The notes below the pieces were generated by a model. That model was not told the DNA's origin, searched no databases, and saw only the letters and a list, made by a program, of their open reading frames with translations. This document shows, one piece after another, positions 1 through 38,516 of a DNA stretch of 42,980 bases; the first letter of the stretch is position 1; every line of letters starts with the position of its first letter. Source of the DNA: Pseudomonadota bacterium. GTDB lineage: Bacteria; Desulfobacterota; Desulfobacteria; Desulfobacterales; RPRI01. The stretch covers positions 1-42,980 of the forward strand of contig JBDRRF010000117.1 in assembly GCA_043825875.1 (NCBI GenBank), given 5' to 3'. Made by a program: the position numbers and the translations under genes.

Positions 1-82
1 TCGTCGTGACCTATATCAGCGGCAACCCTTCGCACTTCGAAAGAATCTCGAAAGTATTCTTCCGCATCATACCGAAGATTGT
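1..82. repeat. Terminal direct repeat / circular assembly overlap, left copy
   Basis: Bases 1-82 (TCGTCGTGACC...CCGAAGATTGT) are identical to 42899-42980. Confidence 0.97.
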
Positions 83-98
83 TTTCTTCCTTACTCAT
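1..98 (-). CDS. 5' part of a 104-aa hypothetical protein that spans the circular join (continues 42898 to 42682)
   Basis: ATG at 98 preceded by GGAAGGTGAGG; reads MSKEENNLRYDAEEYFRDSFEVRRVAADIGHDETY, in frame with ORF 42682..42933. Confidence 0.85.
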   Translation of the reverse strand, partial: MSKEENNLRYDAEEYFRDSFEVRRVAADIGHD

Positions 99-103
99 TG
101 GCC

Positions 104-445
104 TCACCTTCCTTTCCTTTCCATCGCATCCAGAGCAATCCAAACCGCTTCGGTGGGTGTTGCGGTTGAACCAGCAGTCATCCTCAATCCTGATGCGTCC
201 CAGCGCCATCCCGTCCACCCACCTATATGGTCTCTTATCGCAAGCTCTATCAGCATCGATTCAAGATCGGCGCGGGTTTTTCGATCCTCTGGCAGATTCA
301 ACAGTTGAGCTACGAAGTTACATAGCCTAACCACATCGACCCCGCCAGGAGGATACGCCATATGGTTGCCATGTTTACGCTTTTTGTATTTCTCCCGATA
401 TCGTATAATTTCGTTCTTAATAGCCTGCCTGATGTCATCCATCAT
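104..445 (-). CDS. Hypothetical phage protein (113 aa)
   Basis: ORF with AGGAGG RBS, co-oriented with neighbours. Confidence 0.7.
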   Translation of the reverse strand: MMDDIRQAIKNEIIRYREKYKKRKHGNHMAYPPGGVDVVRLCNFVAQLLNLPEDRKTRADLESMLIELAIRDHIGGWTGWRWDASGLRMTAGSTATPTEAVWIALDAMERKGR

Positions 446-495
446 TCCTCCTTGTCGTTATGCGGTCCGCATATACGTTTGTTATGCAGCACCGG

Positions 496-870
496 TCACT
501 TCAGTATCTGGCGGAGAGCCCAATACTCCGGGTTCACCAGGGCCGCAATGGCCCCCGACAGCTCCAGGCCCACGATCACCGCCACCAGCGCTGCAAATGC
601 GATTGATCCCGCCCACGCGAAGAATGCGCCGTCGCTGTCCCACTCGGCGCGCGGGTAGCGTTCGTCCTCAGTCTTGGGCGGCACCCGCGTTTTGCTGCGC
701 ACCCAGCGCAGCAGCAGAACCGCCATTGCCACCCAAGCGGCCATCACCGCCAGATTGATAACCCCCGTAATCGGCGCCTGTCGCAGCAGCACGCCCCACA
801 GGTATTCAGCAGTGGTGCCCAGCTTGTTGGCCAGCGCGGTCAAGGCTTGCAGTGTCTTGTCATCCATCAT
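496..870 (-). CDS. Two-TM membrane protein (LANKLGTTAEYLWGVLLRQA motif)
   Basis: GAGGAGG RBS; two hydrophobic segments; visibly more GC-rich than flanks. Confidence 0.8.
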   Translation of the reverse strand: MMDDKTLQALTALANKLGTTAEYLWGVLLRQAPITGVINLAVMAAWVAMAVLLLRWVRSKTRVPPKTEDERYPRAEWDSDGAFFAWAGSIAFAALVAVIVGLELSGAIAALVNPEYWALRQILK

Positions 871-924
871 TCCTCCTCCTCTAAATAGACAAGCAATAAA
901 ACATCCAGCCTGTGAATTTGAATA

Positions 925-1173
925 TTAGCATTCCATCAAAATCCTGCGCTTCGTCTCCTTTTCGTTGCACTTTTCACAACACGGGCCGACTACTCGCTCT
1001 TGATTGTGCCGAACGGAAACAAAATAGCTTTGATAATATCCCGTTATCACTTTACATGAACAATCGATGCATCTCATTGGGGGCGCTGTATAGCTTAAAT
1101 AAATTTCCCGTTCATGAGGTTCTTGTGTCCATGTTGTATATTCATTCTTTTTGTTTTTATCTTTGTCAATCAT
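925..1173 (-). CDS. Small Cys-rich, possibly Zn-binding protein (82 aa)
   Basis: ATG at 1173 (MIDKDK...); CIDC and CEKC motifs; follows the stop of the upstream small ORF. Confidence 0.55.
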   Translation of the reverse strand: MIDKDKNKKNEYTTWTQEPHEREIYLSYTAPPMRCIDCSCKVITGYYQSYFVSVRHNQERVVGPCCEKCNEKETKRRILMEC

Positions 1174-1178
1174 TGGGA

Positions 1179-1304
1179 TCACCAATAATGTATTACAAGA
1201 CAAGTGGACATTGCAAGAACCGCAAGCACAAACAAGCCAATGATTAAATTTTTGGCTAACTGCCATGCACCATTAAGAATTTTTGAAATGTAATCATCAT
1301 CCAT
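1179..1304 (-). CDS. Small single-TM protein (41 aa, MDDDYISKIL...VIHYW)
   Basis: Not in the ORF track; GAGGG RBS, fills the gap between genes, hydrophobic C-terminal half. Confidence 0.55.
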   Translation of the reverse strand: MDDDYISKILNGAWQLAKNLIIGLFVLAVLAMSTCLVIHYW

Positions 1305-1313
1305 CACACACCC

Positions 1314-1535
1314 TCATTCCTTTCCACGCTTTTTGAGCGGGGTAACCTTGCATTGGATAAGTTTACCTCCGCAGTTCTTTTTATGGTATTTCAACCAAGT
1401 ATTCCCATCCATTGGAATAAAGCCAATGGAGTAACCCCGATATAAAGCGAACCCTTGCCACTTGCAATTTTCCCAACGATCGCAATGCCACATATGCTTA
1501 TGATACTCTAATTCTTTTTTATCTTGACCCATCAT
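1314..1535 (-). CDS. Hypothetical protein (73 aa)
   Basis: Co-oriented ORF in the small-gene array; Cys/His-rich. Confidence 0.6.
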   Translation of the reverse strand: MMGQDKKELEYHKHMWHCDRWENCKWQGFALYRGYSIGFIPMDGNTWLKYHKKNCGGKLIQCKVTPLKKRGKE

Positions 1536-1558
1536 TCACACTTTTCATTCTACATACG

Positions 1559-1747
1559 CTAATGATATTTGCTTGTGTTTGTCGCATTGACTATTGCGGC
1601 TTTTAAGTCGTTTGCGTCTACAATTCTTTCTTCTTCCCCAATCTCTATAATAATAAGATTGTCATAGTGAAGATGGCTATAAACACGTATTGCTGTTTTT
1701 TCTGGATAGTCATTCGTCGAGACCTCATTGGTAACATTTATCATCAT
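1559..1747 (-). CDS. Hypothetical phage protein (62 aa, MMINVTNEV...)
   Basis: ATGA overlap with the upstream stop and a GAGGAGG RBS; the ORF-track extension to 1882 is unlikely. Confidence 0.7.
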   Translation of the reverse strand: MMINVTNEVSTNDYPEKTAIRVYSHLHYDNLIIIEIGEEERIVDANDLKAAIVNATNTSKYH

Positions 1748-1962
1748 TCCTCCTCTTTCCATCGGCGCACCTCGAACGGACCGATCATGAACGCCCACCG
1801 GTAAATAAGTTGGTATCCGCTGTTCTCGAACCGCGTAAAGTGGATGAACGGCCACCACGTTGCCGAGCGAAAAATCGGCCACCAGACAAACTGAAAGCCA
1901 ACCAACACGTGAGGGTCGAACATACTAACCAATCGATGCACTCGGCTCGCTATCTCTCGCAT
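1744..1962 (-). CDS. Trp/Phe-rich hypothetical protein (72 aa)
   Basis: GAGGAG RBS; translationally coupled to the downstream gene. Confidence 0.65.
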   Translation of the reverse strand: MREIASRVHRLVSMFDPHVLVGFQFVWWPIFRSATWWPFIHFTRFENSGYQLIYRWAFMIGPFEVRRWKEEE

Positions 1963-1981
1963 GTGATCTCTCCTCTAAAAC

Positions 1982-2051
1982 TCCCGCTGGCAGGATTCGA
2001 ACCTGCCGTGCCCATATGCCGTATATGTCGTGCGCGTCACGACGCAGCGGG
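1982..2051 (-). ncRNA. tRNA-like RNA with intact acceptor stem and T-arm but aberrant D and anticodon arms
   Basis: CCCGCTG/CAGCGGG 7-bp acceptor stem; GCAGG-TTCGAAT-CCTGC T-arm; internal hairpins GTCGTG/CACGAC and CATAT/ATATG; no U8, no D-loop GG, no canonical 7-nt anticodon loop. Confidence 0.7.
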
Positions 2052-2063
2052 GGAAGTTGTCAA

Positions 2064-2450
2064 CTACATATCGATTCGTTCGTGATCAATTCCCATGGTA
2101 TTGCAATGCAGGCACATATACAACCCATCGACAATAACATACGCAGTACCCGGAGTTGTATCTTCCCATCCGAATTGAAGAGATGATCCTGACGGCGAAC
2201 TCCATTCGCAACTTGCTTCACCGATTTTAGAATCTGTATCGTCGTATTCATTTATCGTGAACGATGCAAAATTCTGATGCGGTGGATTAACACCACCAAA
2301 AGACAGGGAAATAGTGAACGACTCACCATTAGAAGATCCGGTTACATTGCACCATGGCGCACAAATACGACCACCCGGTGGCTCAGGATCGATAGCATAT
2401 GCTCCGAAACAAACGGCAAGTCCAACAATAAGAACCAGTAACGTTTTCAT
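2064..2450 (-). CDS. Secreted/periplasmic Cys-containing protein (128 aa)
   Basis: AAAGGA RBS; signal peptide MKTLLVLIVGLAVCFGAYA with an AxA cleavage motif; several Cys. Confidence 0.75.
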   Translation of the reverse strand: MKTLLVLIVGLAVCFGAYAIDPEPPGGRICAPWCNVTGSSNGESFTISLSFGGVNPPHQNFASFTINEYDDTDSKIGEASCEWSSPSGSSLQFGWEDTTPGTAYVIVDGLYMCLHCNTMGIDHERIDM

Positions 2451-2480
2451 GTTTTTTCCTTTCATAGTTTGGAGTTTAAA

Positions 2481-2580
2481 AAGCAGCGCGCCCGGTAAAA
2501 GAAAGATTCGGTTGCTATTGAAACTTGGCTTTTCATCTTAAACTGTGCGATAATTCCAAAGAACTATGGGCGCGCTGCCT
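2481..2580 (-). ncRNA. Stem-closed small RNA element A (paralog of element D)
   Basis: AGGCAGCGCGCCC/GGGCGCGCTGCTT closing stem; loop shares GTTCTTTGGAATTA, AGTTTAAGATGAAAAGC and TAGYAACCGA with 3667-3773. Confidence 0.7.
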
Positions 2581-2591
2581 AATTTTTAAAC

Positions 2592-2750
2592 AGCGGGCAG
2601 AAGAACCATTAGAAACCTAGATCGAAACAACGTCCAATTCGTCTTTTACGTATTTGACAAAGGGTTTATCTGCCCGAACTTATCAGGCTCTGCTTTCGCA
2701 GGTGCTTTGTAAAAGAACTAAAAAAAGAACCGATAAATCTCCTGCCCGCT
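2592..2750 (-). ncRNA. Stem-closed structured RNA element B
   Basis: AGCGGGCAGGAG/CTTCTGCCCGCT closing stem (G-U pair on minus strand); internal CTGC-GAAA-GCAG and GCCTGA/TCGGGC hairpins enclosed by ACAAAG/CTTTGT. Confidence 0.65.
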
Positions 2751-2755
2751 TCTTG

Positions 2756-3253
2756 TTATTTTTTCTTTGATTGCTCAACCATAGGTTCAGCCGGCGAACT
2801 CTCCGGCATGTCAACAGGATTTGCGCTCTCCACGTATCCCGAAAGAAAATCTTCCATGGCCTTAATCATGGACCTGATTCTGTTTTCGTCTTGCGCTTGA
2901 ATGCCCGTACTCTGTCTTGAACTTTGAGACAAAACAACTTCATCCCTGAGAGTTGACATGTAATTGACAACATCAGTAATCATTTCATTTGATACCTGGA
3001 AAACCTCCACCATGGGCGCCAATACATAAGGCTGTGGCGTCGTTTTGGGAAGATCCTGGATCGGTTGGCCAACAACCCAATCAACGTAACTTGTGAGATT
3101 CGTTAAATACTGCTTGCATCTCTCAACGTCATGCGAATTGAAATTGTTGGTGTTTGCCGATTGGGAATACAATTGCTCGGTGATGTACCGATTCAACCTG
3201 TTCACAATCCCGCAAATGTTCATGTTATAACAAACAGTTTCGGATTCAGGCAT
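2756..3253 (-). CDS. Hypothetical helical protein with an internal two-fold repeat (165 aa)
   Basis: AAGGAG RBS; both halves share an N-x2-I-x3-N...E-x3-SQS...D-x2-R...D-x-P-x3-P pattern. Confidence 0.85.
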   Translation of the reverse strand: MPESETVCYNMNICGIVNRLNRYITEQLYSQSANTNNFNSHDVERCKQYLTNLTSYVDWVVGQPIQDLPKTTPQPYVLAPMVEVFQVSNEMITDVVNYMSTLRDEVVLSQSSRQSTGIQAQDENRIRSMIKAMEDFLSGYVESANPVDMPESSPAEPMVEQSKKK

Positions 3254-3264
3254 TTCTTAACTCC

Positions 3265-3531
3265 TTATTTAATTCGTTCCGCTTCGGGTGAAATAACGGG
3301 CAATTCCTCCGCAACAGAAGATTCCCGCTGAGGTCCAAAGGACCGCCAATTTTCTAAATCGATCCGGTTTTCGGCTAAGATATTCCATGCCATTAAAACC
3401 GTAATAAACAAACAGACACCTGTTATTATTCTGGTACTTTTGTGTTCGCCCTTACAAATTGTGTATCGATACATCTCGATACCTACATACAAAACGATTG
3501 CAAGTGACGCATAAACATGACTGTCAAACAA
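3265..3531 (-). CDS. Two-TM small membrane protein (88 aa)
   Basis: AAGGAG RBS with TTG start; two hydrophobic stretches. Confidence 0.7.
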   Translation of the reverse strand: MFDSHVYASLAIVLYVGIEMYRYTICKGEHKSTRIITGVCLFITVLMAWNILAENRIDLENWRSFGPQRESSVAEELPVISPEAERIK

Positions 3532-3550
3532 TTCGATCTCCTTTCAATAG

Positions 3551-3642
3551 GAGGAAGCACGGCGCCAGGAGGAGAACGGAAATGAAGAACCGCCATTCAA
3601 AACCAAATGTCAATTTTGAATGTAAAGACGCCATGCCTCCTC
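3551..3642 (-). ncRNA. Stem-closed small RNA element C with an exposed anti-SD/anti-AUG segment
   Basis: 16-bp stem GAGGAGGCATGGCGTC/GGCGCCGTGCTTCCTC, fully paired only on the minus strand through three G-U pairs; internal CATTCAAAA/TTTTGAATG hairpin. Confidence 0.65.
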
Positions 3643-3666
3643 GTCTCTTTTTTTCAAAAATAAAAA

Positions 3667-3773
3667 GAACGGTGAGCCCCGTTAAAACAGTCGGTTACTA
3701 CCTGTACCTAAGCTTTTCATCTTAAACTTATGCATGTCTTATTTAATTCCAAAGAACGTAGGGCGCACCGTTC
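3667..3773 (-). ncRNA. Stem-closed small RNA element D (paralog of element A)
   Basis: GAACGGTGCGCCC/GGGCTCACCGTTC stem followed by a U-rich tract; same three conserved loop motifs as A. Confidence 0.7.
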
Positions 3774-3784
3774 ATATTTTAAAT

Positions 3785-3849
3785 GGGACGGTTGGCTTAT
3801 GTGAGGTCGTCGGAAAGAAGTAAGAGGGAAAGAATTGACCAACCGCCCC
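3785..3849 (-). ncRNA. Stem-closed small RNA element E with a pyrimidine-rich loop
   Basis: GGGGCGGTTGG/CCAACCGTCCC stem (G-U pair on minus strand); loop TCAATTCTTTCCCTCTTACTTCTTTCCG. Confidence 0.6.
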
Positions 3850-3856
3850 TTGTAGA

Positions 3857-4345
3857 TTAAAAAGGTAAATCAGTAAGACCAGTTGAAGCCGCGGCCCCGT
3901 CAGTAAAACCCAAAGTCTCCAATTGGGCAAAACCATCCTTCACGTTTTTGATGTCAGCCATAAAAGGCATATTGCGCATGTCATCAAGATAGCGCGTCAA
4001 TTCGCTGATCTTGAAATCCTTTATGCCGAGCCCCGTAAAAAAAGCTTTCAAGAATCGCCCCTGCCTGATCATTTCAGGCACTTCCTCCGCCCATTGCTTT
4101 GTGACGACAGGAAAGTAAATTGAAGCTTCACAACCCCTGTTGTTCACATTGTCATCACATCCAAGCAGATTGATGATTAACTGAGGTCTGCCGTAATACT
4201 TGCTGCTCGACTTGTTGTTTTTATTGAGTGTATATCTGTCAACGTAAATAGCCTGACGTCCGGGTTTCAATTCACCATCACCCATATTTTTATACAGATC
4301 ATCTGATCCGCCCAATTCTTCACTGACATTAAAATCATCAATCAT
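3857..4345 (-). CDS. Putative single-stranded DNA-binding protein (DUF669-like)
   Basis: Directly downstream of the Sak4-like ATPase; C-terminal TDLPF tail typical of SSBs. Confidence 0.7.
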   Translation of the reverse strand: MIDDFNVSEELGGSDDLYKNMGDGELKPGRQAIYVDRYTLNKNNKSSSKYYGRPQLIINLLGCDDNVNNRGCEASIYFPVVTKQWAEEVPEMIRQGRFLKAFFTGLGIKDFKISELTRYLDDMRNMPFMADIKNVKDGFAQLETLGFTDGAAASTGLTDLPF

Positions 4346-5105
4346 TTGCTTTCTCCTTAAAGAAGGCCGCTATCTTGGCCCAACATTGTTCCTCTGGCTC
4401 CACAATAATTTCACCAGAGCCCTTGAGATATTTGGTGCAGTCTTTTGCGATATATTGTGTCGAAGGCGTGAATGAAATACAACGCCTTTCAGTAAAAACC
4501 CCATCCACCATGACGCCTTTAATGTACATCCTGCCAATCATGTCGGTCATCCCATTGACGATTTTCCAACAAGTTGGTATCATATCGGGCTTAATCATTT
4601 CCCGCACAACTCCGGCATATTCGGTTTCTTTCACCGCCTCGTGGCAGATCATAACAATGCCAAGACCTGATGAAGCCAAAGCATTAAAGGCATTGACCAT
4701 TTTAGTTTTTGCATAATCATAGCCTTTGCCATGGCCTGAATCATTGATATGTTCCCAACCATTGTCATGGCACACCTCGTTCACGCCAAACTGCCAGAGG
4801 TTTCCAATCCCATCGACGACCACCGTCTTGAAATCATGGTCTTCGCCTAATAGGGCTTGAACCTGCTCTCTAAAATCGGCCCAACTATTTACATCCTTCC
4901 CCCATGTCTTAATCCATTTCTGGCGCTTGTCACAGCGTAAAAAATAAGGGTTATCCATCTGGCTCGCCATTGTCGTTTTGCCGACACCAGGCTGGCCGTA
5001 AATCAAGATCTTCCCTCGCAAGGGATCGGTCTCCACGGGATCGAAATCCTGAGCAAGCTTAGAATCCTTGTTTTCCATCTTCTGTGGTCCTTTCTCGTTT
5101 CTCAT
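4338..5105 (-). CDS. Sak4-like AAA_24 ATPase / single-strand annealing recombinase
   Basis: KILIYGQPGVGKTT Walker A, TVVVDG Walker B, GxGY and ICHE motifs; nuclease-Sak4-SSB gene order. Confidence 0.88.
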   Translation of the reverse strand: MRNEKGPQKMENKDSKLAQDFDPVETDPLRGKILIYGQPGVGKTTMASQMDNPYFLRCDKRQKWIKTWGKDVNSWADFREQVQALLGEDHDFKTVVVDGIGNLWQFGVNEVCHDNGWEHINDSGHGKGYDYAKTKMVNAFNALASSGLGIVMICHEAVKETEYAGVVREMIKPDMIPTCWKIVNGMTDMIGRMYIKGVMVDGVFTERRCISFTPSTQYIAKDCTKYLKGSGEIIVEPEEQCWAKIAAFFKEKAND

Positions 5106-6027
5106 TTTTCTCCTCCAGTTCAGGGTGATAATCAGACCCTACTTGATCATACAATTCTCTCCATCCTGGTTCCGCGAAACATATTGGCAAATATTTACAG
5201 GCATGATTATATGAAATACACGAAGTAGGATTCATGCTCCAAACTTTTGTATGGTAACAATCCGCCAATCTCCACAATATATTAAGAAGAGACGACGTAA
5301 CAGTTTTAGAATGACAATCTAAGGCAATGCAAGACGAATAATACTTCGTCACATTTTCAGATGATGCATATTCCGTTGCCATTCTTGAAAGATAATCGTC
5401 ATGGGATTCGTTTTTTTTCTGACGGATGCCCGGCCTTTTAATATAACGAAACTCAAAGCTACTCACATTTATATTAAATAATTTAGAATAGGCTTTACGA
5501 TAAAGTATCTGCTGTAAGTCTAATGAAAGCACCTTTTCAAACCATGACAATCCTACGTTACTGATACTGTCTTTTGTCTTATAATCAATTAATTGAACAG
5601 AATCGCGGACAGGCACAACCTCATCAATGCGACCACCAAACTCAAAATTATAAGGGATCGCGCGACCGTAGATATCATCCATAACATCCGACATGGGCAT
5701 TCTAATCAACACTTCAAATTCAGAACCCGGCAGGACTGGCCAAGGCGCGTTATAGGCGCCATGAAAAGCAATAGTTTCAATTTCTTTGCATGTAGATTCG
5801 TCAAACATACCGTTACGAAAAAGGTCTAATATCTCATTCTGCACTTTCAGCTTTATCTTGTTTGGCTCTACGCCTTTTCCGAAAAGCTCTTTTGCCAAAT
5901 GTAACATCGTACCAATTATCATAACTTTCGGCTTGTTCTTTTCTTGATAACCTAGAACTTGGCCTAGCTGATATTTTTTCTCGCAAGCCAAGAAATCTAA
6001 GATTGTAGTCTTTGTCAAAATCACCAT
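5059..6027 (-). CDS. PD-(D/E)XK (RecB/Cas4-like) exonuclease
   Basis: GRID...LIDYKT catalytic motif, Q-x3-Y, one N-terminal Cys plus three C-terminal Cys; AGGAGG RBS before ATG 6027. Confidence 0.85.
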   Translation of the reverse strand: MVILTKTTILDFLACEKKYQLGQVLGYQEKNKPKVMIIGTMLHLAKELFGKGVEPNKIKLKVQNEILDLFRNGMFDESTCKEIETIAFHGAYNAPWPVLPGSEFEVLIRMPMSDVMDDIYGRAIPYNFEFGGRIDEVVPVRDSVQLIDYKTKDSISNVGLSWFEKVLSLDLQQILYRKAYSKLFNINVSSFEFRYIKRPGIRQKKNESHDDYLSRMATEYASSENVTKYYSSCIALDCHSKTVTSSLLNILWRLADCYHTKVWSMNPTSCISYNHACKYLPICFAEPGWRELYDQVGSDYHPELEEKNEKRERTTEDGKQGF

Positions 6028-6358
6028 AATCATCCCTCCTTGAAACAAACTCCACGGTCAAAGCGAAAGATCCAAATCTTTTCTTGTTTATTTTATTATA
6101 CGCTTTAGCTATTGGAGAGAGAAGATACCGAATTGCTTCGCTAGTTGTTGACTTGGTGGCATCCGTATAATTCCTCACAAAATCACGCAAATGCGTATCA
6201 AGATCAATCACCATTTTGCCGCTATTATTGGCGCGCCGCTGGGCTTTCGACGTTTTCGCCGCGCGCGCTTTGCGCTTATATTGTTCTTCCGCTAAAATGT
6301 TTTTCGATAAACCGGAAGGGTCAATAGTTGTAAACGGGCTGTTGTCTTTTTTTGGCAT
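5834..6358 (-). CDS. Putative ribbon-helix-helix transcriptional regulator
   Basis: KMVIDLDTHLRDFVRNY...TTSEAIRYLL fits an RHH pattern; first gene after the consensus promoter; C-terminus overlaps the nuclease gene. Confidence 0.55.
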   Translation of the reverse strand: MPKKDNSPFTTIDPSGLSKNILAEEQYKRKARAAKTSKAQRRANNSGKMVIDLDTHLRDFVRNYTDATKSTTSEAIRYLLSPIAKAYNKINKKRFGSFALTVEFVSRRDDYGDFDKDYNLRFLGLREKISARPSSRLSRKEQAESYDNWYDVTFGKRAFRKRRRAKQDKAESAE

Positions 6359-6390
6359 AAACTCTCACTTTCTTAACTCTCAATGATGAG

Positions 6391-6418
6391 ATTATACCGC
6401 AAGACGCAACCTTGTCAA
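6391..6418 (-). promoter_or_regulatory. Sigma70-type promoter of the replication/recombination operon
   Basis: Exact TTGACA-N16-TATAAT on the minus strand in the intergenic gap. Confidence 0.85.
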
Positions 6419-6769
6419 TTAATTTTTTATATTGCGTATTACAGAAATGACAGAATTGAGCGTTCCATGTAGTGATTTTAATTCGGATAAGATATTATCA
6501 AGCACTATAGGTAGTGCTTTCAAATCTTTTTGCAATTCTACTGTTTTTTCAATGCATTCATCATTGAAATATGCAAGAGGCCGCCCCGAACCGTTGGTTT
6601 TATTATGGAAACAGACCAGAGATTCTATGTTCGCATCGATTGATTTCATAGCATTAAACAATTCATGTATTTGCGGATCGTTCCGCCCCTTAAGCCAATC
6701 CCAAACAATTTTGGCAACAATGCCAAATCCTAGTGTTACGATAGCACCGGTGATTATCGCGTCGTTCAA
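6419..6769 (-). CDS. N-terminal TM plus coiled-coil protein (possible holin or lysis accessory)
   Basis: Single N-terminal hydrophobic helix; last gene of the late block. Confidence 0.5.
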   Translation of the reverse strand: MNDAIITGAIVTLGFGIVAKIVWDWLKGRNDPQIHELFNAMKSIDANIESLVCFHNKTNGSGRPLAYFNDECIEKTVELQKDLKALPIVLDNILSELKSLHGTLNSVISVIRNIKN

Positions 6770-6771
6770 GA

Positions 6772-7458
6772 TTATGTCTTTCTATGACCAGGATGTTCAT
6801 CCGTCCAAAATTCAGGAAAGTCAATATATGGAATATCCACAGTCCCGAAGTTCCCAAGTTTATATATTTTAACTATTTGTGATAATTTTTCATGCCAATA
6901 CTCGAACTCTTTGGCAAACTCAAGCAATCGTTTTGTTGTCCGTATTGTCTGTTTTCCGACCGTTATTTTGCAGCCCCTATCCGTTCGCGCCAATAACGCC
7001 TGCTTGTCTAAAAACACGTTGGATCTAAACTCATTGCGTCCAGGTTGAGGGACGAGCATGCAGTCACACCCAACCAAAATTATAGGATTACAACCCATCC
7101 AATGAAGCACCTGTAAAGCACATCCCCCTGATGAATTATGGAGTAAAGCCCCATTGATATTTCGATTGCCAAAACCCCAATAATAAGTGTCGGTCCCGTT
7201 CGCTATTGGCGTCTTATTGCGCCGCATCATTTGGAGTTTTACACAAGGAGCGCGACGGCATTCGTCTGTCACATTCCGATCTTGCCAAATAATGTAATCC
7301 AATGGATGTTTTTGAAAACCCAGATTGCATCCGATCAATACTCCTTCATTCTTTAAGGCAGGAATGTTATAATAATTGACAGTCCATCCATTCCCAATGA
7401 CAAAGCCAGTTTCATCCTTGTGGCGGTCAACGAGTTGGTCTATCCATTTAGCTGGCAC
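6772..7458 (-). CDS. Maf/MptE-like (DUF115), sialyltransferase-like glycosyltransferase
   Basis: RHKDETGFVIGNG, IGCN, DYIIWQD and SSG..ALQ..HWMGCNPIILVGCD motifs. Confidence 0.75.
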   Translation of the reverse strand: MPAKWIDQLVDRHKDETGFVIGNGWTVNYYNIPALKNEGVLIGCNLGFQKHPLDYIIWQDRNVTDECRRAPCVKLQMMRRNKTPIANGTDTYYWGFGNRNINGALLHNSSGGCALQVLHWMGCNPIILVGCDCMLVPQPGRNEFRSNVFLDKQALLARTDRGCKITVGKQTIRTTKRLLEFAKEFEYWHEKLSQIVKIYKLGNFGTVDIPYIDFPEFWTDEHPGHRKT

Positions 7459-10400
7459 TATTTTACTTTTTCAATAGTCTTTTTATGTTCTTCGATAATC
7501 TTCAATGCCCGACCCGGGAAGGTTTTCTGTATATAAGAATGTGAGCGTTTTAGCTCACTCTTGCGCTTACTGATTTCGAACTTCCTGGTTTTTTCTAAAC
7601 GTTCAACATTAAACTGATAAGTTTTGGGGCGCAATCCAGCCGCCTCGATGGTCCTTTCAAACAAAACTTTTTCGCCATCGGGCGATTTTCCAGATATCAG
7701 CTTATTAAGCTCATTGGCCGCTCGAATGTTTCTAAGTCCATGAACGGCCATTTTGCTTATGTCCATGCCAAGATAAGAAGGTCCGTACGGTTCTCCGGGA
7801 TAACGCTGGATGTCCTCCTCGGTATAAAAGCTATGGTTGGTGGCCATCTCAATCGGCAATTTAATGAATGGGCTAAGAAGTCCAGCCGCCAGTTTATGCG
7901 GTTCCATCCCTATCCAATCTCGCAGATCAGTCCAGCCCATCCATTGATTCCAGAGCCTGACTTCAATCTGGCCAGTTTCTTTATTTACTTGCGTTGGCAC
8001 GCCTAAGTTTTTATTAACCCATCTAGGCAAGAGTTTTACGTCTATGTCCCGGGCTTCGTCGCTTTGAAAAGCATGGACAATGCGGTTAGCCAAAGAAAAC
8101 GCTCCAGGTTTCGTTATCAACATTTCGAAAGTCCGGGGCGTATTTTTGCGAGTCCAATTCCAGAACGGCATAAACGGCATCATGTTCTTGTCAAAAGCAC
8201 TCACCTCATTAAAATTATAAAAAAACTTTTTGACACTCTGTGCCGCCTGATAGGGGTCATCCCCCTTTTTAAGACGATTAATAAAATGGGCGGTCCTATG
8301 GATACTTTCCGCCTCATTGCCGCGTTCAAATAGCCAATTTGTTGCCGCGTTAATAGTTTTGTTCAGCTTCTTTGATGTGCTCTTGGTCAAAGTCACAAGC
8401 TCACCATCAGTTATATGCATCTGGTCTGCTGTATGAATGCCTTTCCCCAGGATATTCTCTTCCAACATATGGCGATAAGCATCACCTAAACTGATTGGCT
8501 TTCCATGCCATCCCGATTTAACAACTTCCTGTGTCAACGAATCGCCTTGAACTCTCGCGGCTTTATTCATCCAATTGTATAGCCCTTTTTTCTCTGAGCC
8601 GAGGAGGGCCTTCATGGCGTGGTGATAATCAGTAGGAACCAGAGAATCGGCAAGTCCCGCCTGCCAAAATCCATTGGTAAAATTTCTCGAATAATACGCA
8701 GGAAAAAAAGCCAAAGTCGTCGCTTTCCAGAAGTTGGTTATTGTCATGACCGACCGCATGGCACCACTCTTGAACGTGGGGTTTTGAGAGAAATCGACAA
8801 ACCGCTCAAGCCCTTCCATTATCTCCGTGGGCATGGCATGTACCGGCAAACCCACGGCCGCGGCTTTGGCCGCATTTAGTTCCTCCTGGTCAATGGTATG
8901 AATCAGCCGGCTTAACCCTCCAGGAGACTTGAGCCTTGATCGATCAACCTGCGATTTCCACATGTTGTAAGCAGGTTCACCAATGATGGTCTTCCAGTTA
9001 TCCCCATAACGAGCCCGCATGCCCTCTTCGCTGAAAAGAACAAGCCGTTCGCCAAGAAGGGGATTCCACTCTTCCTCAGAAACTTCTCTGGCAAAGATCT
9101 TAACTCCCATGTTGATTTTGTCTTGGAGCTTAATGGCATGATTTGAATCCACCATATATTTTTGGATCGTGGCCGTTGGATTTTCCATGAAAAGGGATAA
9201 CTGGCTAGAATCCATGCCCCCAAGCACGTTATCCCATAATCCCCGATCTTTGCCCTTCAGGTTATTGCGGGCATGATAAAAGACTTTTTCAAGGAAATCA
9301 TAAGGTAGCTTGCCCTCCCGCGCCATGCGGTTCAGCGTAGGAACGTCATATTCCTGAAGCACACGGTTTAACCCGGCTTGATTAAACACATCCAGCACAT
9401 CCTTGCCGCGATACTGCAATTTCCCAGCCTTCAGCAGTTCACGAAAAGACTTGAGCCCCAATGCGCCCTTGGCGGTTTCCGTCATAAATCGCGGGACATA
9501 AGCCAACTCAGGATCAGGGATTAAAGTGTTAAGCCGATATTGGCGCATGGCAAATTCGGCCCGCAGTACGTCTGTTTCAATATTCGTCAGTTCTCTTTTG
9601 TGGAGATCCCCTACATCATCCGTTACATCCCAACCTTTCTTTTCGGCTAGGCGGTTGAATTTTTTGTCAACCCTATTTTTAATCTTGCGCCAAGAGGGCA
9701 TATCGTTCATGTCCACACCCTGGCTCTTGGCCATGTTCATAAAATAGTCATAAGCCCTGCGATTAGAAAGTTGATCCCTTCCGAAGTATTTGACTTTCTG
9801 CCCTGGCGTAAGCTCGAACCGCCCGAACTGGTCATCAAACCAGCCTCTAATTTTCTCAATGGTTTCCTTGAGATGCTCCGGAGCCTCCCTGGGCCTCAAA
9901 AAACCCTCGTGGTTGGCCGCGAACTCATGAGGGTGCCTCAGCATGTCCATGACCTTATCCGCGTCACCTTGGCTTAAATTCCGGAAGATCTGAGCCGCTT
10001 CATCGGATATCTGCTGCACCCGCTCATCTGATAGGTAGTGCCTTCGTGCCGAAGTGGCCATGGATAGGGCCGCGTTACCGGCCTCTGACCCTGTGCCCCA
10101 CTTCAACATTTTCGTGGTCCACCCGGTGAGACTGCGCCCGGCCGCCGTATTGAACCTAAGATGACTGGTCATCTTTTCAAACCCGGTAATAACCGAACCT
10201 GACCATTCATCAAAAAGTTTTGGTATAAGAGAGTATTGGCCATCAGGGATGCCAAGCCGGCGCATCAGCCATGGAATTCTGACCGCGGCAAGAGTGGCCG
10301 CCCCCTCTTTCAGGCGCTGTCCCAACCCTGGGGGCAACAAAGTTCTTGGGTCTTCCGCGTTTTTCAAATACGGCGCCACATAATCCATTAATTCCGTTCG

Positions 10401-31256: not shown

Positions 31257-31508
31257 ATGCCAGGTAATCACGCCACCGGCCAAGAACTCATTAAATTCCT
31301 GCAAGAAAAAGGACTCCAAGACGCCGAAGTCTACATCGCGGCCCATTTCTCCACCAAACAAAATACAGTCTATGTCCCCCTCGATCTCCAAGACCACGGC
31401 AACCCCCACTACAAAATCACACCACCCAACCCGGCCCAGGCCGAACCCGCCACCCTGTCCCTCGGCATGTGGGCCTGCAAAAAAAACAACACCGGACCGC
31501 ATCAGTAA
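31257..31508 (+). CDS. Hypothetical protein (83 aa)
   Basis: AAGGA RBS and ATG at 31257; T..ELI..LQ...DAEVYI pattern. Confidence 0.6.
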   Translation: MPGNHATGQELIKFLQEKGLQDAEVYIAAHFSTKQNTVYVPLDLQDHGNPHYKITPPNPAQAEPATLSLGMWACKKNNTGPHQ

Positions 31509-31551
31509 TCCAAAAATTTTTTGGAAAAGGAAATCGGCATAGAAGAATGAG

Positions 31552-31629
31552 AATGAGAATGATAGGGGAATATGAGAATAGAGGAAGGGATATGAGAATA
31601 GAGGGGGGGAATATGAGAATAGAGGGGGG
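31552..31629. repeat. Tandem purine-rich repeats with about 20-bp period (ATATGAGAATAGAGG core)
   Basis: Exact cores at 31570, 31590 and 31611; degenerate copy at 31552. Confidence 0.9.
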
Positions 31630-31941
31630 TGGCCCTCAACACTCCCCGGGTGCGCGCGAAAAAAAGACGCCTGGCCCCCTGGTCTTAATTTCCTTTCATA
31701 TGAAGTTTCTCAGATATATGTGGACCTCGATATCAAGACATTGGAATATGTGCAGGATGCAATATGAAAAAGCAAACATATGCGTCAACTCTCATGGTTA
31801 ACTGATTCACCTCCAGCCTCAAAATCGCATTAGAATAAACCTACTCATCATATGAACTATTATCGGACGTTATTTTTGACCAACTATCACCTTCCCATAA
31901 ATAACCAACCAATGGCTTTGTCATATATGAATAGAAACTTA

Positions 31942-32160
31942 TGTATCAGCAAATGACGTAAATGCCATAATGTATCCCACTTAGTTATACCATATTCAAA
32001 TAGAAATCAGCAGGAATTGCGCAAATCCTTATTTTGCAGTAGTTTAGGATTTGTGTATCAGCAAATGACGTAAATGCCATAATGTATCCCACTTAGTTAT
32101 ACCATATCTACATAAAAATCAGCAAAAATTGTGCAAGCCCTTGCCCTACAATAGCTTGAC
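31942..32160. repeat. Tandem duplication with 112-bp period and an exact 54-bp core
   Basis: 31942-31995 is identical to 32054-32107; the remainder is degenerate. Confidence 0.92.
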
Positions 32161-32177
32161 TATACCATATCAAACCC

Positions 32178-32307
32178 ATAATAAAAAAAAAGAGACTATC
32201 TATGTGGGGGAAAATTACACATACACACACACACGCACACACATTACCCATTACATGTGCATTTCCTTTTTTTTCCCCACATATGATACTATGTATTTTT
32301 TTATTAT
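32178..32307. repeat. Imperfect inverted repeat enclosing a CA-rich tract
   Basis: ATAATAAAAAA...TATGTGGGGGAAAA pairs with TTTTCCCCACATA...TTTTTTATTAT. Confidence 0.75.
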
Positions 32308-32588
32308 ATATTAGATATAATATAGTAGTATTGTTGATAAATAAGGACTTATGATTATATCAATACAAATACATATAAAAAGGGTCATATATCAATATAA
32401 ATACATATGTATCAACTTAGATATGAGACACTTTTGAGACACTCTTTTAACATAAATACATATGTTCCATTTTAAATATGAGACAAATGAGACACTATTT
32501 CGATTTAATCACATATGTCCATTACCCACATTTCCGCAATTCCCTGATGCAGATCTTCCACTTTTTTTTATTTTTTGCTATTTTTGCC

Positions 32589-32616
32589 TTGACCTTGCAC
32601 CGATATAGTGTATAGT
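32589..32616 (+). promoter_or_regulatory. Sigma70-type early promoter
   Basis: TTGACC-N16-TATAGT with upstream T-tracts, just before the plus-strand gene block. Confidence 0.65.
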
Positions 32617-32670
32617 TGGGGCATGTGAGATGCGAAACGATCCTGAAACTTAAAAAAAAGGAACAGAATT

Positions 32671-35582: not shown

Positions 35583-36329
35583 TTGGAGGTTGACATTTTA
35601 ATCTATACGGCTCTTTTTGGCAATATCGATAAGCGTCTCCGGAATCCAATCCACCATAACATAAAAGAAAATGAATGTTTATGCTTCACGGATCGGCAGG
35701 ATCTTAAATCTGATGTTTGGGAAATTATCTACCTTCCTCCGGATATTTTCTTTCCGTCATGGGAACCCAGGATGAAAGCCAGGTTTATGAAAATCATGCT
35801 GCCCGACATGTTGTCGGTTTTTTATGCTTTGGGTTTGGCGAAAAGATTTCCCCAGGACGGAGACGTATTTTTATGGGCTGATTCTTCCATATTGATCCTT
35901 TGCGACCCTCGCCAAGTTGTAATGGAGTATTGGAATTGCACAATTGAATCACCTGATATTTTAGCGTTTCTCCATCCGGATCGTGTAGACCTAGAGAAGG
36001 AAGCTATGGCGGCTCACGAGCTCCGAGGCACAAATATAGATAAAGCGCAAGAACAAGTGGCATATTATCGATCGAAAGGATTCACAAAGAATATCCAAAA
36101 GTCCATCACTGTTACTAATTTTTTATTCAGGATGCAATCTCCTCGATTAAAACAATTAGCCAAAGAATGGTGGAGCCAGATCGTTTGCTTTACGGAACGC
36201 GATCAGTTATCTATAGACTTTTGTATATGGAAACACAATCTTATAGTCAAATATCTGCCGGGAAGTCATAAAAATAGTCCGCTAATGCGCTTTTACCCTC
36301 ATTCCAGAGAAATATCCAAAAAACAATGA
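35583..36329 (+). CDS. DUF616/TOD1-MUCI70-like glycosyltransferase
   Basis: IYTALFGNID, CFTD, AR..K..P, LWAD, HPDR....E, WW and RDQLS motifs; start codon uncertain. Confidence 0.85.
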   Translation: MEVDILIYTALFGNIDKRLRNPIHHNIKENECLCFTDRQDLKSDVWEIIYLPPDIFFPSWEPRMKARFMKIMLPDMLSVFYALGLAKRFPQDGDVFLWADSSILILCDPRQVVMEYWNCTIESPDILAFLHPDRVDLEKEAMAAHELRGTNIDKAQEQVAYYRSKGFTKNIQKSITVTNFLFRMQSPRLKQLAKEWWSQIVCFTERDQLSIDFCIWKHNLIVKYLPGSHKNSPLMRFYPHSREISKKQ

Positions 36330-37099
36330 AATACATAATCGCCTGCATTACAGAAAACTATTGGCAAAAATCTAGACAATGGTTAGACAGCGTTATTAAA
36401 TTCGCAAAACCACAGGGTTTTGAAATCATATGCTTCACGGTAGGTTTTGACGGTGGAAATCATTGCAGGAAAATCAATAGGGCAGATATCACAAACCACG
36501 AAAAACCGGGCTGGTGCAGAAATAGAAAAGATTATATTAGCCTGGAGGGCGGCGAATTCTTGAACCTGTTCGATTTCAAAGACGATGACCTTGTTATTAA
36601 CTCTGATGTTGATATGGTCATGATGAGACCCATGACCTCTAATGAACTATCTTGGCTAAATAGACTTGATAATCAAAGTATCGCCCTGGCTCTGGATGAA
36701 AATGCCAAAATAGATTTATACGATTCCCAATATATCAGCTCTCCTGAACTCAGGAAGGCTTTCCCTCCACAAAAAGAAGAAACATATTGGACCCATTATT
36801 GTGGGGTTATGGCCGGGTACGTCCCGGCATGGAAAAAACTACATGATAATTTTAAATTCTATTACAAAGAGATCCGCAATATTGTTCCGCATCACGCCAT
36901 CGGACAATGGACAATCAACTATGTTCTTCATACTTTTGGCGGCATAGAACAATTGCCGCGGGGGCTCCACGAAGCGCCTTGGTGGAACGGAAATAAAAGC
37001 TTAATGTTGGATAAAAAAGGGAAATGGTACTGGAAAAACGTGGAAGTCTGTTTTCTTCATCACAAGTTTCACAGGAGATTTGGTTACATTGAAAAGTAA
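36326..37099 (+). CDS. GT-A-like nucleotide-sugar transferase
   Basis: VINSDVD DxD motif, CGVMAG, QW.INY and FLHH; ATGA-coupled to the upstream gene. Confidence 0.7.
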   Translation: MKYIIACITENYWQKSRQWLDSVIKFAKPQGFEIICFTVGFDGGNHCRKINRADITNHEKPGWCRNRKDYISLEGGEFLNLFDFKDDDLVINSDVDMVMMRPMTSNELSWLNRLDNQSIALALDENAKIDLYDSQYISSPELRKAFPPQKEETYWTHYCGVMAGYVPAWKKLHDNFKFYYKEIRNIVPHHAIGQWTINYVLHTFGGIEQLPRGLHEAPWWNGNKSLMLDKKGKWYWKNVEVCFLHHKFHRRFGYIEK

Positions 37100-37712
37100 A
37101 TCCGACCTTATCAACTTTATTATTCAACAGCATGGCTTTAAATCTTATCTGGAAATTGGAGTCCTGAACGGGCATAATTTTAAACAGATTCAAGTGGAAC
37201 ATAAGGAAAGCATTGACCCTAATTCCAAATGGCCCGCCACCTACAAAATGACGTCGGAGCGTTTTTTCGATTCTTGCGTAGGTCAATATAAAAACAAAAC
37301 ATATGATGTTGTCTTCATAGATGGATCGCATCTATCGGAAGATGCCGGAAGTGATGCCTTAAATGCCCGTCGATACCTGAATCCTACCTATATAATCATG
37401 CACGATTGCAACCCCAAAAAATATGAACACCAAATACGGCAGAGGCCGCGTAACGGCAAAAGTTGGTATGGTGATGTATGGTTGGCATGGGTTGCTCTGC
37501 GCCAAACACTTCCATTCCTTCCCATGTTCGTTGTAGATACAGATTGCGGGTGCGGCATCATCTATAACAGGATTGAATCAAGATCCGCGTTCACTATAAC
37601 GGAAGATCTTACATGGGAATCACTTCAGGAGAACCGAAAGGAATGGCTCAATCTCCAAAATATTGAATACTTTAAGAAATTCGTAGAAGAAAGATCGAAT
37701 GGAATGTCTTAA
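37080..37712 (+). CDS. Class I SAM-dependent methyltransferase (Methyltransf_24-like)
   Basis: SYLEIGV, IDP, MTSERFF, DVVFIDGSH, IMHDCNP, WYGDVW and DTDCGCG motifs. Confidence 0.88.
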   Translation: MVTLKSKSDLINFIIQQHGFKSYLEIGVLNGHNFKQIQVEHKESIDPNSKWPATYKMTSERFFDSCVGQYKNKTYDVVFIDGSHLSEDAGSDALNARRYLNPTYIIMHDCNPKKYEHQIRQRPRNGKSWYGDVWLAWVALRQTLPFLPMFVVDTDCGCGIIYNRIESRSAFTITEDLTWESLQENRKEWLNLQNIEYFKKFVEERSNGMS

Positions 37713-37730
37713 AAAAGAAAGAAATGTCGC

Positions 37731-38516
37731 ATGATTACTTTCATTACCCCCACCGGAGACCGCCCTATAGCACTTAAACTTTGCGCCGAGTTTGTGACTT
37801 CTCAAATTACCGATGAAAAGATTCAATGGATCATTGCTGACGACTCCATAAAAAAAAACAGTGAATCTTACTCTCAACAATTAGATATCATTAAAACCTG
37901 CCAAGAAGGCAATGTGGATCTTTTGCACATAACCAGACAGCCTAAACCGGAAGAAATGAAACCGGGAAATGGCGCCATGAGTTTGGCGCAAAATCTCATA
38001 GAAGCGATACCTCATGTTGAGGGAGACAGAGTCTTAATTTTTGAAGATGATGATTGGTATAGCCCACATCGAACAGCTATCCATTTAAAATGGCTTGAAA
38101 CATGTGATATTGTTGGGCCTATATGGCAGCCGTATTATAACATAGAGCAAATGTCCGCGAAAGTATTTAAAAGCAGAGGTTCAAGCCTTTGCTCAACAAG
38201 TTTCAGACCGCATTTATTGCCTTTACTCAAGGACACTTGTGAATCATGCTATCGGCGCAACCTCAAAGGGATAGACGCCGGATTTTGGTCTCTTGCTCAA
38301 AGATCTGGAAAATACCGATCATTCATTTCAGAAAGTGACATTTATTATTGCGTTGGTATAAAGCGGCTTCCTGGTCGAACGGGTATAGGCGTTGGGCATA
38401 AAGGCCACAATTTTGAGCCTGATCTAAATGCTAAACGACTCCGCCAATGGGTAGGAGAAACTTGGGCTAATCGTTATTTAGAGATACGGAATGCCGTATT
38501 TGGAAATAAATCCTAA
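37731..38516 (+). CDS. GT2-like glycosyltransferase
   Basis: ITPTGDRP, WIIADD, FEDDDWY and GIKRLPGR.GIG.GH motifs. Confidence 0.85.
   Translation: MITFITPTGDRPIALKLCAEFVTSQITDEKIQWIIADDSIKKNSESYSQQLDIIKTCQEGNVDLLHITRQPKPEEMKPGNGAMSLAQNLIEAIPHVEGDRVLIFEDDDWYSPHRTAIHLKWLETCDIVGPIWQPYYNIEQMSAKVFKSRGSSLCSTSFRPHLLPLLKDTCESCYRRNLKGIDAGFWSLAQRSGKYRSFISESDIYYCVGIKRLPGRTGIGVGHKGHNFEPDLNAKRLRQWVGETWANRYLEIRNAVFGNKS

Follow-up and report, generated by a model that had tools for sequence, protein, structure and literature searches.

To our knowledge, the use of boxA by phages is textbook matter only for lambda-like nut sites, which work with an N protein. The lambdoid nut sites (nutL and nutR of lambda, and three such sites in coliphage mEp021; PMC2800207, PMC11893012) are repeated phage RNA sites with a sub-consensus boxA that serve host polymerase. 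Leaders and spacers of ribosomal RNA (rrn) operons carry a boxB-boxA-boxC element, along with leader-trailer helices, acted on by NusB, S10, NusA, NusG, SuhB and S4 (PMC8632103, PMC10250234, PMC13753749). Outside rRNA operons, boxA is described in leaders of CRISPR arrays and in 5′ untranslated regions of the suhB type (10.64898/2026.07.09.737519, PMC5725501). We describe two RNA elements, A and D, on the minus strand of a 42,980-nt stretch of DNA (contig JBDRRF010000117.1 of assembly GCA_043825875.1; hereafter the window), which is a complete circular podophage genome of ~43 kb with a terminal overlap of 82 nt. The contig (C117) is part of a 4.77-Mb groundwater bacterial assembly, the bin, which probably represents a sulfate-reducer lineage and which we treat as the candidate host. 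We propose, at a probability of roughly 0.45, that A and D, together with an element B that shares their boxA word, may be cis-acting sites at which host NusB-S10 loads on the nascent transcript, in the manner of a nut or rrn site.

A and D share three boxes in the same order, with boxes 1 (14 nt; 2551-2564 and 3744-3757) and 2 (17 nt) exact on the minus strand, and the inserts between boxes measure 6 and 15 nt, and 10 and 11 nt, in A and D respectively. The three shared boxes, their order and the insert lengths had been stated in a preliminary description made from the sequence alone (coordinates in Table 1). Elsewhere in the phage, box 1 has a single one-mismatch match, at 28425 on the plus strand within the terminase gene, and box 2 has no third site at up to three mismatches. 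The same description had the outer stem differing in sequence while still pairing, and the alignment of the closing stems bears this out: over 13 pairs, 25 of 26 cells are paired, with four double changes, one single change and one pair broken in D. Slid registers gave 31-58% paired cells and zero to one double changes. In the shuffle control, which has two rows only to work with, 35 of 500 shuffles match the observed value. Folding of the minus strand gave z-scores of -3.55 for A and -3.25 for D; for the plus strand they were -3.31 and -2.43.

The boxes had been placed in loops, which does not hold for all of them. Box 3 of A is predicted single-stranded; box 1 is predicted in both elements as a weak hairpin of the C(UUUG)G type, and box 2 as a hairpin, with seven pairs in D and only four possible in A, or as a strand paired with the 3′ pyrimidine tract. 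From this predicted fold we infer that box 2 of A may be boxB-like. No Rfam covariance model, those for Y RNA, 6S, SRP, tracrRNA, type III antitoxins, riboswitches and ribozymes included, matched in the window at the gathering threshold. At E 10 over 1700-4000 there were six matches, but their scores fell well short of it and neither A nor D was at the centre of any. For a Y RNA/Ro60 reading, no TROVE protein was found in the bin, which is only the candidate host.

A natural variant of A was found when the contigs of four runs were compared with positions 1850-4350. It lies on one contig (depth 6.9) of run X3, from another sample, and its 3′ part also occurs in X5. Relative to A, this copy shows 12 substitutions, and indels account for another 12 bases. 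Both substitutions within the 11 core stem pairs hit the two partners of a single pair (2571 and 2490) and pairing is kept; five compensatory pairs are seen over the three copies (A, D and the variant). Box 2 is conserved plus one inserted base and box 3 keeps nine of ten positions. The earlier description of the boxes as constant does not fit box 1, whose 3′ half is changed. Insert 1 is ~16 nt long and partly resembles that of D, and insert 2 differs at 4 of 10 positions. Element B, by contrast, hardly differs between the phage and the variant contig; selection, recombination or a collapsed assembly may each account for this. The stem alignment and the compensatory pair of the variant support the claim that A and D are real, selected RNA modules, paralogous and with closing stems under selection. 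The variant contig lacks the 165-aa gene of the phage and carries another gene after A than the phage does; in the neighbouring open reading frame (ORF), 28 of 150 positions are changed.

The 5′ part of box 1 resembles boxA. We built a boxA class from 33 rRNA loci of the bin's order, with 26 leader and 26 16S-23S spacer sites. The resulting class, G[ACT]TCTTTGA[AC]A, is exact in 47 of the 52 sites and has one mismatch in five; it agrees with the gammaproteobacterial consensus GYTCTTTAANA (PMC5725501), with the B. subtilis word, for which NusB binding is shown (PMC13753749), and with the rRNA/CRISPR word of M. xanthus (10.64898/2026.07.09.737519). None of the three phage words, in A, D and B, fits the class at all 11 positions; each does so at 10. 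The core word G-Y/W-T-C-T-T-T is complete (7/7) in A, D, B and the variant, and so are G1, C4 and U5, whose mutation reduces NusB:NusE binding (PMC2800207). The boxA-like sites lie on the sense strand below the promoter at 6418, those of D and B 100 and 38 nt past stop codons.

One-mismatch sites of the class number 10 on both strands of the phage and five on the minus strand. Three of these five fall in the 616 untranslated bases of the RNA cluster, for which shuffling gave a mean of 0.075 sites (at least two in 12 of 3000 shuffles, three in 0 of 3000). With a weight matrix from spacer boxA sites, B, A and D rank 3rd, 5th and 6th among 85,934 positions. The sites are predicted to be weakly paired, with an opening cost of 1.6-5.3 kcal/mol overall. 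In the variant, 3 of 11 positions of box 1 differ, yet its distance to the class remains a single mismatch, and the deviating position is now that of B. Its position 2 toggles between T and C, as in the published consensus (PMC5725501). The chance that three random changes keep a one-mismatch match is 0.02-0.03. The variant has lost the strand that would form the hairpin predicted for box 1, so what is conserved is the boxA core and not the hairpin. That the boxes bind protein, as had been suggested, is plausible, and box 1 is boxA-like with NusB-S10 as its candidate ligand.

If A and D act in cis, host RNA polymerase would leave the translated region and NusB-S10 would bind boxA as it emerges. 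The modified complex would resist Rho and read through the U-tailed stems, allowing transcription of the RNA cluster and of the downstream resolvase and primase-helicase genes. It may also bring the two arms of the stem together, the 3′ arm emerging ~80 nt after the 5′ arm, as at rRNA operons, where the rrn-type complex blocks Rho and aids duplex formation (PMC8632103). Boxes 2 and 3 might bind a second factor, either on the host NusA/SuhB side or a phage N-like protein (compare boxB in nut sites), and closed stem units may be excised as small RNAs. The facts in hand for this proposal are a host-type promoter, two untranslated blocks in the middle of a recombination/replication operon, boxA-like words and compensated stems. 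On the side of the candidate host, genes for NusB and Rho are present in the bin, and its CRISPR leader carries an exact boxA. The decoy role put forward earlier is possible; we prefer a role in cis because it better fits the position of the modules and known biology.

A number of observations weigh against loading in cis. The rRNA sites were taken as the best match to a boxA-like word, and the class was chosen after the likeness had been noticed. The matrix scores of the three phage sites (14.2, 11.1 and 10.5) are lower than that of the weakest of the 26 spacer training sites (15.2), two coding-region phage sites score as high as those of the cluster, and with a matrix from leader and spacer sites together the ranks of B, A and D drop to 4, 8 and 9. 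The mismatch in A and D, which are not independent of each other as boxA cases, replaces an A that is invariant in 52 of 52 rRNA sites of the order, and it closes the predicted C(UUUG)G hairpin. Opening the boxA is predicted to cost 3.3 (A), 2.3 (D) and 5.3 (nascent A) kcal/mol. The phage boxA lies inside its closing stem, whereas the boxA 5′ of the pre-23S stem is single-stranded. What the variant says of box 1 comes from a single contig of depth 6.9, and the low rate of change in its boxes 2 and 3 (1/27 versus 11/71 elsewhere; Fisher p = 0.10) is only suggestive. A cis site needs neither a closing stem nor a U tail, which keeps a decoy in trans alive. No N-like protein was identified, with no N family among the 51 ORFs scanned. 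As candidate host, the bin gains no support from its CRISPR spacers (0 of 44 match the phage within 7 mismatches) or from G+C content (44.5% in the phage, ~38.5% in the bin). Shared genes gave no link either, and the tetranucleotide correlation is 0.70, with CTAG avoidance the only shared trait.

Like the lambdoid nut sites (PMC2800207, PMC11893012), the modules place boxA 5′ of a spacer and a purine- or adenine-rich loop, ahead of recombination and replication genes, and they come in several copies, as in mEp021. Their sub-consensus match also has a parallel there, the nut boxA being weaker than the rrn boxA (dissociation constants of ~80-90 versus 5-8 nM; PMC2800207). They differ in lying 2.6-3.8 kb from the promoter and not close to it before the first terminator, in being enclosed by 13-pair stems with U tails and in having a third box; moreover, no N-type protein was identified, and the 51 ORFs include no match to an integrase or a repressor family. 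The nut order of boxA, short spacer and boxB hairpin is approached by B, with boxA, 6 nt and a GAAA hairpin, and by D with its 7-pair purine-loop hairpin, while A has four pairs. With the rrn element (PMC8632103, PMC10250234, PMC13753749) the phage shares the boxA word of the host lineage in untranslated RNA with long-range 5′/3′ pairing; its boxA is one mismatch from the class and stands inside the stem, not before it, and the enclosed RNA is ~75-80 nt. An A-rich word follows boxA by 24-26 nt in 7 of 26 spacer sites of the order, and by 27 nt in A and 36 nt in D. In the one operon tested the host word pairs with the 23S trailer, and little weight can therefore be put on its resemblance to box 2. 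Box 3 has some likeness to the boxB loop of phage phi21, on which, as on the 23S and 5S words that resemble box 2, nothing is built here. The boxA of CRISPR leaders and suhB-type 5′ regions (10.64898/2026.07.09.737519, PMC5725501), found also in the bin's CRISPR leader, belongs to single host chromosomal sites that have no enclosing stem or paralogous boxes. We conclude from the sequence comparisons that the modules may work like a nut or rrn boxA site. They are not classed as a nut site, given that an N protein was not identified and the position is not promoter-proximal, nor as an Rfam family.

The strongest alternative, which we regard as unlikely, is a decoy role in trans: A and D, along with B, would be set free as stable small RNAs protected by their stems and would capture NusB-S10, and a second factor on boxes 2 and 3, so that rRNA operons and boxA-dependent CRISPR arrays lose anti-termination during infection. 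Known phage and virus small-RNA decoys and clusters include Racr anti-CRISPR RNAs, pseudo-ToxI repeats, T4 RNA C/D and adenovirus VA RNA, and stem-closed RNAs clustered with a tRNA-like unit recall them; no Rfam match is found here, and the supposed target is a transcription factor and not a Cas protein or toxin. Free small RNAs are typically built with closing stems, compensated here, and U tails; A/U-rich linkers separate the five units of the cluster, three boxA-like copies raise the dose and a strong promoter drives the whole. In the bin, an exact boxA stands 30 nt ahead of the first repeat of the type I-E CRISPR array, which makes it one of two genomes of the order with boxA 29-30 nt before the first repeat of such an array (G000:C88:23810 (+) and L162), and anti-termination from CRISPR-leader boxA is described (10.64898/2026.07.09.737519, citing Stringer 2020). 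A decoy should, however, equal or beat the host site, and all phage sites are sub-consensus; their boxA is also predicted to be partly occluded in the folded RNA. A narrow CRISPR-leader pattern matched in 1 of 401 genomes, missing the bin's own array through a repeat variant, so the generality of such a boxA is not shown. Less likely than the decoy role of these three elements is a decoy array spanning both untranslated blocks. In such an array A, D and B would titrate NusB-S10, boxes 2-3 adding NusA/SuhB or S4 contacts, while E and C would present C/U-rich single strands to Rho or to ribosome-binding sites; the joint effect would be a shutdown of rRNA synthesis and of CRISPR array transcription that depends on boxA. 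Below both we place binding of some other protein, with boxes 2 and 3 as the core, box 1 as a C(UUUG)G hairpin or linker, and the boxA likeness due to ancestry or chance. No parts are better preserved across the three copies than boxes 2 and 3, their matches to host RNA are limited to short words (10/12 with a 23S segment and with 5S), and the box-1 hairpin is predicted in both A and D. This explanation has to meet the loss of the hairpin's 3′ strand in the variant while the boxA core is kept, the presence of boxA without boxes 2-3 in B, and the enrichment of boxA sites in the untranslated bases (3 versus a mean of 0.075).

It is improbable that the modules are Nus-sensitive attenuators, in which the Nus complex, loaded at boxA inside the loop, would hold the 5′ arm and promote the stem and U tail, so that more Nus means more termination and the replication genes are gated by host state. 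Both A and D end in a stem and U run, and the 3′ arm of D also scores as a local terminator. Loops of ~75-80 nt, the size enclosed here, make poor intrinsic terminators, and B is without a good U tail. A boxA can repress, as at suhB (PMC5725501), and the rrn complex supports duplex formation, although it also shifts NusA so that hairpins are not stabilised (PMC8632103). About as improbable is that the boxes serve as operators in double-stranded DNA, perhaps for the ribbon-helix-helix-like gene at 5834-6358, or are a recent neutral duplication homogenised through gene conversion, the outcomes named beforehand as counting against RNA modules. Conversion would fit the identity of A and D in box 1 where the ortholog of A differs, and perhaps the near-identity of B in the variant contig, which recombination or assembly collapse may also explain; a weak 9/12 promoter-like site ends just before D. 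Both versions are weakened by the five compensatory pairs, which include the two variant stem substitutions on one pair, and by the varying spacing of the boxes (insert 1 of 6, 15 and ~16 nt). G-U pairs and a GAAA tetraloop favour minus-strand RNA, and the boxes lie at no promoter. Boxes as sigma-70 promoter halves were rejected, their spacing differing between A and D. The last candidate, guide-like inserts in a constant scaffold (TIGR-, bridge-RNA- or Racr-like), had been proposed on the constant-variable-constant layout and now looks very improbable. For none of the three inserts of 10-15 nt does the phage hold another exact site, and their matches in the bin do not exceed shuffles, except for insert 2 of A, which outdoes all 25 shuffles in one-mismatch bin matches (841 versus a shuffled maximum of 665). 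Insert 1 varies in length, the variant inserts change by indels and scattered substitutions, and no Nop-domain, recombinase or Cas family is present among the 51 ORFs; variation of the indel type and the lack of an effector gene make guides unlikely. Likeness to the bin's type I-E repeat is limited to a 7/8 word at the start of D. The fixed-length inserts with targets and the effector that mark TIGR, bridge RNA or CRISPR RNA mimics are absent.

Searches for relatives of the modules returned little. Box patterns hit 2, 3 and 29 loci in viral contigs, all judged chance and none with closing stem and box 3, and 13 loci each in metagenome and genome contigs, also judged chance; because the latter two patterns called for the 3′ half of box 1, absent from the variant, true homologs may have escaped them. 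Neighbour proteins as queries found no viral loci. Protein and DNA queries over 401 genomes of the phylum, 401 of the order and 17 of the genus found the window alone, and GenBank phages gave nothing relevant. A covariance model (R2) found only A and D in the bin; over 100 relatives it gave two weak matches, an A/T-rich stretch plus a plain terminator, and over 94 loci nothing below E 0.48. One RNA run yielded an uninformative partial match of 36 nt. In the literature, subscription papers not being covered, no phage boxA-bearing small RNA or NusB decoy was found.

The phage encodes an SU10-type capsid, portal and adaptor, a terminase, a Sak4-like annealing protein, an exonuclease, a RuvC-like resolvase and a primase-helicase; among its 51 ORFs no integrase, repressor, N or RNA polymerase family was matched. 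The promoter at 6418-6391 is the sole strong one found in 1-8000, with the RNA cluster 2.6-3.8 kb downstream. It is followed by the 174-aa basic gene, exonuclease, Sak4, a 162-aa gene and untranslated block 1 (E, D, C), then by the 88-aa membrane ORF, the 165-aa gene, untranslated block 2 (B, A), a 133-aa gene and the tRNA-like fold. Small genes come next, and the resolvase and primase-helicase lie beyond the circle junction. The primase-helicase (38540-41473, minus strand) is a 977-aa fusion of a CHC2 zinc finger, a Toprim primase and an MCM-type P-loop helicase. The 174-aa gene fell into an Arc-containing cluster at 0.90 (24% of members), a weak Arc-type lead, and a homolog search with it found none; it is the only candidate seen for an N-like partner. 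It overlaps the start of the exonuclease gene (5059-6048, minus strand) by ~200 nt in a different frame. The gene at 3857-4345 has a relative at 65% identity encoded on a 45.7-kb contig.

The 165-aa protein belongs to an unnamed phage family of 404 clusters at 50% identity and has an internal two-fold repeat. Its model is a confident helical bundle (predicted local distance difference test score of 95.6). Neither Pfam nor PHROG has a match to the protein, and the PDB offers no clear counterpart (best Z 6.8). The gene was rejected as an RNA partner: the variant contig keeps the RNAs without it, and 0 of 37 phage loci have a same-strand boxA-class word within 900 nt. In the 88-aa ORF, third codon positions account for 15 of 20 changes among those listed. 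Since divergence is codon-periodic, 3265-3531 is taken as a gene, and region 3265-3414 was ruled out as an additional RNA element.

Of the remaining elements, B is without boxes 2-3, and its strain changes at 2678, 2679 and 2681 fall in the loop of the hairpin after the GAAA one. Its boxA, 6 nt from the GAAA hairpin, makes it, by predicted folding, the most nut-like layout in the cluster. C has no boxA within one mismatch. Its single-stranded CU-rich segment has ~10 nt of complementarity to the ribosome-binding repeat before the genes at 453, 878 and 1755, and its pyrimidine-rich strand is complementary to Shine-Dalgarno-type words. A 19-nt ribosome-binding/start repeat occurs in four copies on the minus strand (435-453, 860-878, 1297-1315 and 1737-1755) at a spacing of 425-440 nt, which suggests gene cassettes swapped through recombination. 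The predicted loop of E resembles a Rho loading site or antisense seed. The tRNA-like fold has a 5-nt loop in place of the anticodon loop and no CCA, shares 20 identical nt with the T-arm end of a bin tRNA-Arg, and is called by neither ARAGORN nor Rfam.

Further afield, a long divergent non-coding region at ~31450-32650 is origin- or packaging-like: the skew changes strongly there, and the region holds a CA tract, a direct repeat of ~70 nt and purine repeats in short tandem runs. A ~30-nt word is repeated ahead of two plus-strand early genes (~32830 and 33950), a possible regulatory or processing site, and a plus-strand cluster of glycosyltransferase-like and methyltransferase genes (35583-38516) possibly serves DNA or surface modification.

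Table 1. Positions in the window of the RNA elements, their boxes and neighbouring features.
Feature	Positions	Strand	Remarks
Element A	2481..2580	-	13-pair closing stem (2580-2568 with 2493-2481) enclosing boxes 1-3; followed by U5 run 2482-2478
boxA-like 11-mer of A	2554..2564	-	On the 5′ side of box 1; departs from the rRNA boxA class of the order at position 9 only
Box 2 of A	2528..2544	-	Predicted short stem, purine-rich loop, or strand pairing with 3′ pyrimidine tract
Box 3 of A	2508..2517	-	Predicted single-stranded
Element D	3667..3773	-	Closing stem 3773-3761 with 3679-3667, one mismatch, enclosing boxes 1-3; followed by U5-A-U5
boxA-like 11-mer of D	3747..3757	-	100 nt past stop codon of gene 3857-4345
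Box 2 of D	3712..3728	-	Predicted 7-pair hairpin, 8-nt purine-rich loop
Box 3 of D	3691..3700	-	Shared box
Element B	2592..2750	-	13-pair closing stem; boxA-like 11-mer 2718-2708, 38 nt past stop of gene 2756-3253; GAAA-tetraloop hairpin, 4 pairs, 2701-2690
Element C	3551..3642	-	16-pair closing stem, inner hairpins; z -4.38
Element E	3785..3849	-	12-pair closing stem; 41-nt unstructured C/U-rich loop (15 C, 2 G); z -3.68
tRNA-like fold	1982..2051	-	7-pair acceptor stem, canonical T arm; z -1.68
165-aa helical-bundle gene	2756..3253	-	Between the two untranslated blocks; absent from variant contig
88-aa small hydrophobic ORF	3265..3531	-	TTG start; codon-periodic divergence
174-aa gene	5834..6358	-	First gene after promoter; two Arg/Lys-rich segments; weak ribbon-helix-helix lead
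Sigma-70 consensus promoter	6391..6418	-	12/12 match, 16-nt spacer; heads operon holding RNA cluster

Near-copies of boxA that open its RNA modules make it likely that the phage borrows, and possibly soaks up, host anti-termination proteins. If the modules released from the transcript titrate NusB-S10, they would be a new RNA route to block both ribosome synthesis and CRISPR immunity, and the decoy array, if true, would be an RNA anti-CRISPR acting upstream of CRISPR RNA production. If instead the modules work in cis as we propose, they would exploit Nus factors in a new architecture, with boxA in duplicated, stem-closed modules of 100 nt and possibly without a phage protein, in a non-integrating podophage of an anaerobic groundwater lineage.

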